From UHGV virus genome UHGV-0287696: DNA of 64,000 nucleotides. One strand, 5' to 3'. The notes beneath the pieces were generated by a model. The model was not told the origin of the DNA. It worked only from the letters and a program-made list of their open reading frames with translations, and did no database searches. Position 1 is the stretch's first letter. Each line of letters opens with the position of its first letter. This document shows, piece by piece, positions 31,251 through 35,571 of this stretch. A program made the position numbers and the translations under genes. The DNA comes from a virus.

Positions 31251-31922
31251 TTACAGCCCTTGCTCTAACGCAAACGCTTTAATTGAATCGTAATCACGTG
31301 CTTCAGCCCAAGCCCTGACTTCTCTTTTCTGCTCAGACATTGCGTGGTGTAGTCTTTGATCGCGCTCAACGATTGCTGCCAGCAACGTCTTGCACTGTTC
31401 TAACGTAAACGGTTCGATACGGGTGTTGTTAGCCGTTAACCAATACGCAGGCGCAGTTTCTGACTGGATATAACGACTCAGTGCTACCTGTGACTTCTCA
31501 TCTGCCTGGAAAGTGAAATCACCTACCTGAATCTCAGCATAGCGTGCATCTTGATAACGGAATTCCAAAGCGCTTAGAATTTTCTGAACATCGGTAAAGA
31601 TGTACCGCACCGTGGAACGTAAACCTGTACGAATTTCTTCCAGGTCAATCCCCAACGTGTCGTTAACAAAGTCTTTCGCTTTCTGTAGCGTAAACCGTGC
31701 TTCGATTTCAGACATGTCGTAGTTACGCATTTGTTCCAATGCTTCGCGATCAGACATCCCATCAATCAACTTATAGTGCAGTAACGCACAAAACCCTGTA
31801 CGGCCGTGATCTTCGCTACCGATTTTCTCCATGTAGTTACCATGGCGGTCAATCGGTAAATCGTGCGCAAAATAACGGCGACGGATTTCTTCTTTCGTTA
31901 AGCCTTCACCAGTAGCAGACAT
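31251..31922 (-). CDS. hypothetical protein, last gene of the radical-SAM operon
   Basis: 223 aa; AAGGAG Shine-Dalgarno; overlaps the upstream gene. Confidence 0.6.
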   Translation of the reverse strand: MSATGEGLTKEEIRRRYFAHDLPIDRHGNYMEKIGSEDHGRTGFCALLHYKLIDGMSDREALEQMRNYDMSEIEARFTLQKAKDFVNDTLGIDLEEIRTGLRSTVRYIFTDVQKILSALEFRYQDARYAEIQVGDFTFQADEKSQVALSRYIQSETAPAYWLTANNTRIEPFTLEQCKTLLAAIVERDQRLHHAMSEQKREVRAWAEARDYDSIKAFALEQGL

Positions 31923-32470
31923 TCATCGTCTCCTTTAATCAACCCTAATTCGATTAACAGTTCAAAATCGATATGACGGAATCTTGTGTCGAAGTCCGAT
32001 TCCCAATCGATACGGATACCCTGGCATTCTTCTGGCGTTAGCTCAGGAAAAATCACGCTATTAAATTTCTCCCGCTCATCGTAAAACCCATCAATCGGTG
32101 AGTTCGGGTTACGTGTTGCGAAGATAGTAATGCCGGGGAAGGACAATGCCAACACAGTGATAGATTCTGCGCTGGGTTCGCTTAAAGAGCGGCGTAGAAA
32201 CGCAATTTTGTGACGTGGGAAATCCAATACCCGTTCTTCAAACCCTGGGTTACGTTTTTCAATTTCCGCGACCGACAGGTCAGTAAGTTCGGTGCAGTAC
32301 ATTGGGATGATTACAGTCACACCGTGACGTATCAGCAAGCGTTTTACGTCATCGGTAAAATCTTCACCGTTAATCACCACATAACAACCGAATAGCTTAC
32401 TGTTTTCCAGAAACTTATCCAGAAGTCGAATTCTACGCTTCGTAATATTGTTGATCAGAATTGGTTTCAT
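31898..32470 (-). CDS. hypothetical protein co-operonic with the radical SAM enzymes
   Basis: 190 aa; start overlaps the 3' end of the radical SAM gene by 38 nt. Confidence 0.6.
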   Translation of the reverse strand: MKPILINNITKRRIRLLDKFLENSKLFGCYVVINGEDFTDDVKRLLIRHGVTVIIPMYCTELTDLSVAEIEKRNPGFEERVLDFPRHKIAFLRRSLSEPSAESITVLALSFPGITIFATRNPNSPIDGFYDEREKFNSVIFPELTPEECQGIRIDWESDFDTRFRHIDFELLIELGLIKGDDECLLLVKA

Positions 32471-33755
32471 CTTTGGCTTCTCTTAATAATTTTTCCTTTT
32501 GGGCACGTTCACGAACACAGCGTGGGCAATAACACATGCTCGTGTCGTGGAACGCTTTTGCTGACGTCGTACCCATCTTCTGTTTCCAGTATTCCGCCAC
32601 CATCAGTTTCGCTGTCGTCCAGCCACACTGACGTCGTTCAGCGTGATACGCTTTACGGTCTTCTAACGTTCCTTCCCCGTTCTCGTAAGAAGCCGCCGCG
32701 CAGCTACCACAAGCGTGTTTCATCGGACAACCTAAACAGGTCTCTGGGTAGTTGGTATATTGCGTTTGAATCTCTTCTAACAATTTACCGTTGTCCAGAC
32801 TGACGAATTCCCGACCTACCAACTCAAACACCGCAGAACGCGACGTTACCGTTGACATAAAGCGGTTACAGCCAAAGATCTTACGGTCAAACCCTAAGCA
32901 CGTCATGTGCGTTAACGTCCCACAGAACGGACGTAAGCGTTCTGGGTTCAACCGTACGGTGTCATTATACAGTAACTGGTCACGCCAGTTCGGTTCCCAA
33001 ATCGTATCGAAATCCAACCCTTCTGGAATGATGTGCGATAAGATATTACGTGGGTTGGTGTGTAATCCTTTCTCAACCCAGTAATCTATCACATCCATCA
33101 TCTGTAAAGCGATTGACGTCGCCATGCTACGCGGCATAACGTCTTCGAAAGTTACGTTTCCAGAAATTGTCCCACCGCCAGTAATGTCAATTAATGACTT
33201 CATCCCCGCAGCATAGAACGGCAGCGTTTCTAACGTAAAGGTTGCTTTTACGCCGAGCTCTGCAATGCCAACCTCTTTTAAGTAGTTATAGCCACGTACT
33301 GCGGCTTCGTAAGAACCCTGGCGTGTTGTTGTGAAGATACGATAACGGTCATGGGATTCAGGTAAGCCGTCAATCGAAACCCCAACTGAAAGTTTATCTT
33401 TCCAACGTTCTACGATCTCACGGTTCAACGGACGATCTAACAGCGTTCCGTTCGTGGAGATACTAAACATAAACGGTCGGTTGTGTTCTTTACACAACTG
33501 CTCAGCGGTTTCAAACGCAGCCAGCAGCAGTTTAGGCTGCATGAACGGCTCACCACCGATAATGTCGATAATAACTTCAACATTCGGTTCGTTTTTATCA
33601 CGTTCAAAACAGGCGTGTAAGAAATCAACAATATCCGCCGCTTTGTTGTTACGCGGGTACTTACGTTCGTAACAATATTCGCAGTCCAGGTTACACGAAA
33701 GGTTGGTTACGATCTGATACGTTAACTGCTTAGGGAATTCATTTACTTGACTCAT
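32433..33755 (-). CDS. radical SAM enzyme with C-terminal SPASM/twitch-like Cys cluster
   Basis: 440 aa; N-terminal CNLDCEYC (CxxxCxxC) 4Fe-4S/AdoMet motif and GGEPF glycine-rich motif; C-terminal CLGCPMKHACGSCAAA cluster typical of auxiliary Fe-S clusters in peptide-modifying radical SAM enzymes and anaerobic sulfatase maturases. Confidence 0.85.
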   Translation of the reverse strand: MSQVNEFPKQLTYQIVTNLSCNLDCEYCYERKYPRNNKAADIVDFLHACFERDKNEPNVEVIIDIIGGEPFMQPKLLLAAFETAEQLCKEHNRPFMFSISTNGTLLDRPLNREIVERWKDKLSVGVSIDGLPESHDRYRIFTTTRQGSYEAAVRGYNYLKEVGIAELGVKATFTLETLPFYAAGMKSLIDITGGGTISGNVTFEDVMPRSMATSIALQMMDVIDYWVEKGLHTNPRNILSHIIPEGLDFDTIWEPNWRDQLLYNDTVRLNPERLRPFCGTLTHMTCLGFDRKIFGCNRFMSTVTSRSAVFELVGREFVSLDNGKLLEEIQTQYTNYPETCLGCPMKHACGSCAAASYENGEGTLEDRKAYHAERRQCGWTTAKLMVAEYWKQKMGTTSAKAFHDTSMCYCPRCVRERAQKEKLLREAKDETNSDQQYYEA

Positions 33756-34662: not shown

Positions 34663-34683
34663 TGCAGGTGACTCCGGTCGTTT

Positions 34684-35571
34684 TTAAATATAATCAATGG
34701 CGAACAAAGGATCGTCGTCTACGTTAGCACCAGGGGTTAACAAGAATGGAGAGTTATACGCTTCCAAAATACGGTTAAGGTCTTTATAACGGACATTTAA
34801 ACGTTCTAAATCCGCTAACGTTACGTTACGGTCCAACACCGCCGACACTGCTGCTTTCTCTTCGTCAGTTAACGTGACTTTCGTCATTAAGAAACTAACG
34901 AGTTTTGCCAGATCCGCTTCTGTTGACGGATGCTCGCCAATACGTGTTTGAATCAAATGTTGCATCCAAGGCTTACGGATGCGTTTTGTGATTTCGTGTT
35001 CATCCGTCAGGGCAACCCACACGGAACGTTCACGATCCCACACGAACTTATAGCTATACGCCATTAAATCCGCTAGGCAATTAATCCCTAACGCTTCGTA
35101 CCCTTCAATTTCGATATACGATTCCGTATCGAAATAGTTCTTCGTTTCTGGTGTTACCAGGGTAAAGAAATACGGGAACGAGCCTAAGTAATCCGGTGAC
35201 CACCAACGACGGGCAACCGGTTTTGCGCCCATTTCTTCAAATGGGGTAAAGAACAATTCCATATCTACGGAGTTATTCAAAATCCCGTCACTAAAGAAAT
35301 ATTTACCCGCAACCAGTTTACCACGCAACTCGGAGTCACCGGTAAAGACCACTACACTTTCTGCCGTCAGATCACGAATCTTAAACGTATTTTCTACACG
35401 ATAGTTTTTACGATCGGTAAAGAAACGTCCGCGCACTTTAGGCCATTCGCCCGGCAACTGAGTCAACAGACGAACTTCATCTGCTAAGTGTGCACGTACG
35501 GAATCAGGGGAAGAAATGTGAAGTGGATGATTGAAAATTGTTTTGTACGCTAAATGTAAATCATTCTTCAT
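34684..35571 (-). CDS. hypothetical protein between the Cys-rich peptides and the radical SAM genes
   Basis: ORF track frame 34684..35583 begins at TTG; ATG at 35571 with GGAG upstream is the likelier start. Confidence 0.55.
   Translation of the reverse strand: MKNDLHLAYKTIFNHPLHISSPDSVRAHLADEVRLLTQLPGEWPKVRGRFFTDRKNYRVENTFKIRDLTAESVVVFTGDSELRGKLVAGKYFFSDGILNNSVDMELFFTPFEEMGAKPVARRWWSPDYLGSFPYFFTLVTPETKNYFDTESYIEIEGYEALGINCLADLMAYSYKFVWDRERSVWVALTDEHEITKRIRKPWMQHLIQTRIGEHPSTEADLAKLVSFLMTKVTLTDEEKAAVSAVLDRNVTLADLERLNVRYKDLNRILEAYNSPFLLTPGANVDDDPLFAIDYI

Follow-up and report, generated by a model that had tools for sequence, protein, structure and literature searches.

A probable tail-fibre maturation cassette in an SPN3US-like jumbo phage: three putative helper genes beside two radical SAM enzyme genes

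In phage P2, the tail-fibre assembly gene G follows the fibre gene H. In phages that carry no radical S-adenosylmethionine (SAM; radical enzymes of this type, rSAM) genes, DUF4376 is a common C-terminal domain of tail-fibre chaperones, and DUF4376 proteins have been shown to be necessary for fibre function in the Alteromonas phages V22 and A5 and in one Campylobacter prophage (V22 gp27 has 195 amino acids (aa) with the domain at residues 92-184; A5 gp9 has 239 aa with the domain at 138-231). The literature that could be searched, most subscription journals lying outside its reach, held no account of a part played by rSAM enzymes in maturing tail fibres, nor of the three protein families considered here. 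These families were analysed in a 64,000-nucleotide stretch of the virus genome UHGV-0287696 (hereafter, the window), in which three genes, u295, u190 and u223, lie beside two rSAM genes (rSAM307 and rSAM440) and three genes (cysA, cysB and cysC) for cysteine (Cys)-rich CxxxC-repeat proteins. The reading that we favour, and hold to be probable, is that the three genes encode non-structural helpers of a tail-fibre maturation cassette with rSAM-modified CxxxC tips, u295 acting as adaptor, u223 as chaperone and u190 as accessory protein. It rests on the order and co-occurrence of the genes, on predicted folds and on domain matches, plus absence from the virion in published SPN3US proteomics; from these we infer what u190 and u295 do, which chemistry is involved and which proteins bind one another.

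The window phage is an SPN3US-like jumbo phage: megablast of positions 31251-35583 matched SPN3US-like jumbo phages (genus Seoulvirus) only, at ~73% identity, and a 225-kb IMG/VR contig (L003) encodes proteins 99-100% identical to those of the window cassette. The original prediction had placed genes for proteins of 295, 190 and 223 aa beside the rSAM genes, with the first of them between the Cys-rich genes and the enzymes; both points were borne out by the minus-strand order, which runs from a 1727-aa tail protein and a 401-aa tail protein through cysA, cysB, cysC, u295, rSAM307, rSAM440 and u190 to u223. In SPN3US, u223, u190, rSAM440, rSAM307 and u295 correspond to gp161, gp162, gp163, gp164 and gp165, respectively; one Cys-rich gene is gp166 and the other two are unannotated there, while the 401- and 1727-aa tail proteins are gp167 and gp168. 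Judged from their sequences, u295, u190 and u223 are real genes, as each matches one phage protein family end to end (phrog profiles) and is conserved at 30-100% identity in at least 18 genomes. No paralogues of the three were found within the window.

A gap of 21 nucleotides (nt) separates u295 from rSAM307, after which the genes overlap, rSAM307 with rSAM440 by 17 nt, rSAM440 with u190 by 38 nt and u190 with u223 by 25 nt. Both smaller genes had been said to overlap the enzyme genes; this holds for the 190-aa gene, and the 223-aa gene overlaps the 190-aa gene rather than an enzyme gene. The u295 start is an ATG at 35571 with GGAG 7 nt upstream, and every homologue begins with MKN (the longest open reading frame (ORF) would begin at a TTG and encode 299 aa). 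The u223 ATG is preceded at 7 nt by AAGGAG, and the GTG start of cysC was assigned from homologues of 68-72 aa, its longest ORF beginning at 35957. Two terminator-like hairpins, each folding far better than shuffled sequence, bracket the cassette, one after the u223 stop codon and the other between the 401-aa gene and cysA. A single shared transcript is thus plausible. From the T-run of the upstream hairpin to the cysA start codon there are ~8 nt (36738-36760), too few to hold a separate promoter, and read-through of this hairpin may drive expression of the cassette. The 148-nt gap between cysC and u295 harbours no unusual RNA structure (z 0.35) and differs in length between relatives.

The ten-gene order, from the 1727-aa gene through u223, is invariant in 20 of 20 SPN3US-like loci, and the genes beyond u223 differ in order and strand between them. 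In 50,697 records of isolated phages, full-length matches numbered 62 for each of u295, u190 and u223 and 64 for rSAM440, all in one clade; such clade-wide co-occurrence is, taken alone, confounded by common descent. Inheritance was therefore compared by means of pairwise-identity matrices of the seven closest genomes (a small sample of 21 pairs, in which neighbours correlate through linkage anyway). Between the flanking genes (the 401-aa gene upstream; DUF1353 and endolysin genes downstream), r is 0.98-0.99, yet with the cassette genes they reach only 0.2-0.6, while the cassette genes correlate among themselves at r 0.4-0.96 (0.6-0.96 when cysC is left out). The divergence of u190 follows that of rSAM307 (r 0.96) and not that of the 1727-aa fibre (0.19); likewise, u223 diverges more in step with cysB and u295 (r 0.84-0.89) than with the 1727-aa fibre (0.42). 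The difference between flank-flank and flank-cassette correlations points to exchange of the cysA-to-u223 block as a unit, with u190 and u223 apparently moving with this block and not with the large fibre genes.

These patterns bear on the possibility that u190 and u223 are functionally unconnected with the rSAM genes, being clade neighbours that serve gp167, gp168 or something else and that stay adjacent by inherited synteny. Neither gene was found outside the SPN3US clade, both being absent from every lineage with the core of Cys-rich, u295 and rSAM genes, and DUF4376 chaperones act in phages devoid of rSAM genes, as such a view would have it. Against it, the two genes overlap the preceding cassette genes inside the hairpin-bracketed unit, and in close relatives their divergence follows the cassette genes rather than the fibre genes. 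We consider this view somewhat unlikely. The evidence for membership with the rSAM and Cys-rich genes is strong in the case of u295 and moderate in that of u190 and u223.

For u295, the association extends beyond the clade. Its family adjoins rSAM genes in four unrelated phage lineages, that is, wherever the context was readable. An enzyme-anchored census, which covered 47 loci, added a P2-like phage (L045) whose genes run V, W, J, I (baseplate, by Pfam), H, u295-like, rSAM/SPASM, small rSAM, DUF1353, sheath and tube; here, H has 384 aa, its N-terminal domain being of the tail-collar fibre type (E 2e-40) and its C-terminus bearing CxxxC. By analogy, the block of u295, two rSAM genes and DUF1353 occupies the slot of P2 gene G. 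In three 15-35-kb contigs of small tailed phage (L023-25, also labelled L046-48), a lambda-J-like tail protein is followed by a fibre-like protein of 247-255 aa that ends in CxxxC repeats, and then by a u295-like gene, a small rSAM gene, an rSAM/SPASM gene and a lysis enzyme gene. A 1.6-kb metagenome contig (L026), the only one from the metagenome scan, carries a u295-like gene with an rSAM440-like gene directly after it. The distant u295 relatives P0090, P0092, P0101, P0103 and P0105 and alignments A4 and A5, plus two contig scans, gave zero loci. The functional grouping of the three genes with the rSAM and Cys-rich genes, as originally predicted, is thus upheld by the conserved order, by inheritance separate from the flanks and by the position of u295 beside rSAM genes in the four lineages.

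The family is not a general companion of Cys-rich proteins, as u295 was absent from 22 gut-phage loci in which a Cys-rich protein is accompanied by just one rSAM/SPASM gene, where unrelated small ORFs were found instead. These gut-phage contigs (L022 and L049-L070, of 50-196 kb, including GenBank MT835573) encode a CxxxC-repeat protein with up to 60 Cys together with the single rSAM/SPASM enzyme. At the one locus read closely (L022), the pair lies among tail-fibre-like genes, and ORFs of 202 and 94 aa are found at the u295 position; these were considered as u295 relatives and rejected, having no similarity to the u295 superfamily.

The same contexts raise the question of whether u295 is a plain tail-fibre assembly chaperone, an analogue of P2 gpG or Tfa, with neither contact nor role with the rSAM enzymes. 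In L045, it stands directly behind the fibre gene H, at the position of P2 gene G; its SPN3US homologue gp165 is non-structural; and its strongest co-variation among close relatives is with u223 and cysB rather than with the enzymes. However, u295 matched neither Pfam Caudo_TAP nor DUF4376, its absence from the 22 single-rSAM loci indicates that it tracks the two-enzyme version rather than Cys-rich tips generally, and the SPN3US clade already has a DUF4376 chaperone candidate in u223. On balance, we judge a plain chaperone to be unlikely.

The predicted structure of u295 (AlphaFold2; predicted local distance difference test (pLDDT) 86.8, predicted template modelling score (pTM) 0.84) is rich in beta structure in its N-terminal domain and helical in its C-terminal one, and compared with solved structures it matched no known fold. 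The protein had no Pfam match at E<=1 and no NCBIfam match, those for PqqD and the recognition element (RRE) of peptides that are made ribosomally and then modified post-translationally (RiPPs) (PF05402) included. An RRE-like winged helix, one of the suggestions first made for this protein, is thus not borne out, since the model lacks the ~85-aa fold of a three-stranded sheet plus three helices and no PqqD/RRE profile matched. A protease or leader peptidase fares no better for u295 or u190, as neither a protease family nor a protease fold was matched by either. Profile searches of Protein Data Bank (PDB) sequences with u295, u190 and u223 found nothing.

A profile search run exhaustively over 1.84 billion representative proteins delimited the u295 family to 44 representatives. 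Across the superfamily, conservation is concentrated at about aa 157-262, with a YKY motif, an RKPW motif and a helix ADLxKLVxFLLxKVxLTxEE, and the N-terminal half is variable. Invariant polar residues are H6, H28, D23, R47, R49, E150, D168, K175 and the RxRKPW motif; among nine aligned distant members, four positions are invariant. As the protein combines a conserved with a variable half, and as the enzymes have no N-terminal recognition domain of their own, u295 is proposed, from its model, to be a substrate-presenting adaptor or chaperone for the rSAM enzymes.

The second protein, u223, contains Pfam PF14301 (DUF4376) at aa 124-211 of 223 (E 5e-11; 43.5 bits against a gathering cutoff of 25), and its layout is a variable N-terminal part followed by this C-terminal domain. 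Its full-length family is limited to SPN3US-like phages; weak tblastn matches outside the clade were to a Vibrio 'tail fiber assembly protein' and to a DUF4376 protein. Judged from its domain, u223 is probably an ordinary tail-fibre chaperone. It is the last gene of the cassette, and five genes lie between it and the Cys-rich fibre-like genes; a hint that its client belongs to the cassette comes from its divergence, which is more in step with cysB and u295 than with the 1727-aa fibre. The original prediction held that homologues widespread in phages without rSAM or Cys-rich genes would speak against a functional link. Where its context was readable, the u295 family was never found without rSAM genes, whereas u223 has such homologues at the level of the DUF4376 domain; u190 occurs in one clade only, so that the question cannot apply to it.

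The u190 model (AlphaFold2; pLDDT 82.3, pTM 0.80, based on just 10 sequences) is a partial barrel of alternating beta and alpha elements that resembles the partial (beta/alpha)6 triosephosphate isomerase (TIM)-barrel core of the radical SAM superfamily. None of 19 homologues has a CxxxCxxC motif, the sole invariant Cys being C184 near the C-terminus, and no Pfam family, PF04055 included, was matched. Two possible traces of rSAM ancestry were pursued and rejected: hhalign against the rSAM307 and rSAM440 families gave a probability of <1% for u190 as a diverged copy of either, and a putative relic GGE motif (G35-E36) is not conserved over the 19 homologues. Conserved instead is an invariant EKRNPGxExR motif. 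By its defining features, u190 stands outside the radical SAM superfamily; it may be a degenerate rSAM relative or merely have a similar fold, and that it is an accessory subunit is our guess from the model. A third pathway enzyme (leader peptidase, cyclase or dehydratase) in place of a binding partner is very unlikely for either u295 or u190: many polar residues of u295 are invariant and the u190 motif sits on a barrel-like fold that often bears active sites, but u295 matches neither a catalytic family nor such a fold, its distant members share only the four invariant positions and its wider conservation is confined to the C-terminal half, u190 lacks iron-sulfur (Fe-S) and SAM motifs, and a leader peptidase makes little sense where the Cys-rich segment is the fibre C-terminus (L045, L046-48) and the N-terminal domain must remain joined to it.

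Turning to the enzymes, rSAM307 has a CX3CX2C motif plus three C-terminal Cys (conserved Cys 28, 32, 35, 245, 248 and 274), and rSAM440 gave NCBIfam matches below cutoff to NF047865 (1e-33) and TIGR04115 (6.5e-33), at 115-117 bits against cutoffs of 340-350 (TIGR04115: 114.7 bits, cutoff 350). In both, CX3CX2C begins at about residue 21-28, which leaves no room for an N-terminal RRE. With regard to the presumed substrates, cysB matched TIGR04114 just above its cutoff of 20 (20.4 bits) and cysA fell below it (14.4). The cysA protein has 21 Cys and a junction motif NAADTFSG...LDCGGSCSWTC. In L045 and L046-48, the repeat takes up the C-terminal 35-40 residues of proteins that their domains or their position mark as fibres, and a motif at the junction before the repeat, [FL]-x-G-x(4-5)-[YL]-x(1-3)-C-x-G-x-C (for example, NADMLEGQHGDYYRCSGCTWTC), is common to these proteins and the three Cys-rich proteins of the window. 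On these grounds, the CxxxC repeats are read as probable fibre-tip modules, not secreted peptides.

Two variations in the enzymes were noted. The rSAM440 proteins of the SPN3US clade extend further at the C-terminus, by a tail of ~60 aa (window 32433-32620) with an invariant CxCxxC (C408, C410 and C413); it is missing in the two aligned small-phage enzymes (L023 and L025), whose lineage also has neither u190 nor u223. In L007 and L008, both close relatives of the window phage, a second small rSAM gene (~62% identical to rSAM307; 8392-9303 and 8393-9304, respectively) lies between cysA and cysB.

Published virion mass spectrometry of SPN3US provides a view of the gene products. gp161-166 are missing from it, gp161 (the u223 homologue) among them, and gp167-171 are tail proteins: gp167 is found in virions and missing from tailless particles, and gp168 resembles phiKZ gp131. 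The absence of gp161, gp162 and gp165 speaks against the virion adaptor that had been considered. An exporter, considered as well, finds no support, in that none of the three proteins has a hydrophobic N-terminus (by eye) and Pfam gave no transporter domain.

In the mechanism that we propose, the cassette spans cysA to u223 (36737-31251, minus strand), and its CxxxC-repeat proteins would be tail-fibre tip modules. The two rSAM enzymes would modify them, most likely via thioether-type cross-links. As a conserved fourth core component, u295 would hold the unfolded Cys-rich segment and present it to the enzymes, doing the job of an RRE without being one; its conserved C-terminal half (about aa 160-275) would contact the enzymes and its variable N-terminal beta domain the fibre. 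The u223 protein would aid folding or trimerisation of the matured proteins and then be released. Finally, u190 would be a clade-specific subunit, an rSAM-like half-barrel without the iron-sulfur site, probably docked on one of the rSAM enzymes. The name tail-fibre maturation module suits such a set of genes better than that of a classical RiPP natural-product cluster. More broadly, we suggest tentatively, at somewhat less than even confidence, that at least four unrelated phage lineages have rSAM-cross-linked CxxxC fibre tips, with the u295 family as a new-fold substitute for the RRE, and that the SPN3US clade adds a cluster-less rSAM-like subunit and a DUF4376 chaperone.

Several points weigh against the maturation cassette as proposed. 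Only four u295 lineages had a readable context, and ~30 distant family members were not located in any contig collection. In close relatives, the recombination history of u295 differs from that of its neighbours, which argues against tight allele-specific co-adaptation with the enzymes. As u190 and u223 are confined to one syntenic clade, their co-occurrence with rSAM genes is confounded by shared ancestry. The ties of u295 and u190 to the enzymes or the substrate are ones that we infer, and since rSAM440 scores far under the curated PapB and CXXX-repeat family cutoffs, the cross-link chemistry is a guess. Moreover, gp166, the Cys-rich protein, was undetected in the SPN3US virion. This non-detection is uninformative about a structural role, because the repeat core has no tryptic sites and would, under the proposed chemistry, be cross-linked, and two of the three genes are unannotated.

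The features of the cassette and its immediate surroundings are collected in Table 1.

Table 1. Positions of the cassette genes, the bracketing hairpins and the upstream tail genes in the window.
Feature	Position	Strand	Evidence
u223, 223 aa, C-terminal DUF4376	31251..31922	-	phrog_8169 4e-89; PF14301
u190, 190 aa, predicted rSAM-like partial barrel without Fe-S motif	31898..32470	-	phrog_7988 2e-55
rSAM440, radical SAM enzyme, SPASM-like Cys set	32433..33755	-	NF047865 / TIGR04115 below cutoff; Cys pattern
rSAM307, small radical SAM enzyme	33739..34662	-	PF04055 6e-14
u295, putative partner protein, 295 aa, new predicted fold	34684..35571	-	phrog_8030 1e-141
cysC, ~68-aa CxxxC protein	35721..35927	-	phrog_6085 2.5e-24
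cysB, 132-aa CxxxC-repeat protein, presumed substrate	35930..36328	-	phrog_6085 5e-38; TIGR04114
cysA, 132-aa CxxxC-repeat protein, presumed substrate	36339..36737	-	phrog_6085 2e-40
Terminator-like hairpin and T-run, 3′ cassette edge	31197..31227	-	folding free energy (dG) -24 kcal/mol, z -5.9
Terminator-like hairpin and T-run, 5′ cassette edge	36761..36791	-	dG -19.7 kcal/mol, z -5.4
401-aa tail protein (SPN3US gp167 homologue), directly upstream of the cassette	36802..38007	-	phrog_2163
1727-aa tail or fibre protein (SPN3US gp168 homologue)	38042..43225	-	homologue comparison

Nearby, a DUF1353 gene lies 2.4 kb off the module in the window (28137-28811, plus strand). In L045, a DUF1353 gene (10053-10418) immediately follows the small rSAM gene, and in the jumbo loci L014, L015 and L017 one immediately follows u223; the RefSeq label of the SPN3US homologue is 'tail assembly chaperone'. 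The DUF1353 protein may be a loosely linked fifth helper. Two tandem DUF7941 paralogues (30041-30586 and 30652-31182, plus strand) adjoin the cassette on the opposite strand, and their copy number ranges from 1 to 3 across relatives; their counterpart in SPN3US, the homologue gp160, is abundant in the virion and found in tailless particles too.

A set of apparent 'homologues' from SPFM phages (P0044-48, P0058-60 and P0075-79) was discarded as a database artefact, being scrambled in blocks that give spurious weak matches. In GenBank LR535908 (Salmonella phage SPFM10; L074), which is corrupted, 60-nt blocks are each colinear with SPN3US and the block order is reversed, as if the lines of a FASTA file had been reversed without reverse-complementing. 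Similar corruption is suggested for SPFM1, 5, 6, 7, 8, 9, 12, 14, 15 and 20.

Should the proposed role be correct, two fields so far apart, radical SAM peptide maturation and phage tail-fibre assembly, would become connected, with RiPP-type chemistry building a virion structural protein, and rSAM maturases would be able to use a recognition partner other than an RRE. SPN3US gp161-166, a conserved block now labelled hypothetical, would gain a concrete role, and the u295 family would be a small marker of such modules in metagenomes. Some receptor-binding tips would owe their stability or shape to enzyme-made cross-links, so that host-range engineering or fibre expression in other hosts would need the helper genes to be co-expressed.

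Compared with known systems, u295 is like the RRE (PqqD-like) partners in being a small cytoplasmic non-enzyme encoded between the substrate and rSAM genes; the cassette enzymes have no N-terminal recognition domain of their own, and the proposed job of presenting the substrate is alike. The closest structural parallel to u190 is PDB 3CAN, a stand-alone fragment from Bacteroides that is like pyruvate formate-lyase activating enzyme and has the rSAM core without the cluster loop; however, identity is 8% with no profile similarity, generic TIM barrels score nearly as high, and the function of 3CAN is itself unassigned. The DUF4376 chaperones V22 gp27 and A5 gp9 are matched by u223 in size (~195-240 aa), layout and location downstream of fibre genes; unlike them, u223 is not directly behind a fibre gene and closes an rSAM-bearing cassette. 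The L045 block, between fibre gene H and the sheath gene, is placed like P2 gene G or the Tfa genes of lambda or Mu, but this slot holds several genes, enzymes included, and shows neither sequence nor Caudo_TAP similarity to them. As in the systems of the ranthipeptide maturase PapB and of the TIGR04115/TIGR04114 pair, a repeat-rich Cys substrate is encoded beside an rSAM/SPASM enzyme; in the phage cassette this pair is joined by another, small rSAM enzyme, by u295 and, in the SPN3US clade, by u190 and u223, and the cassette lies within tail-fibre genes.

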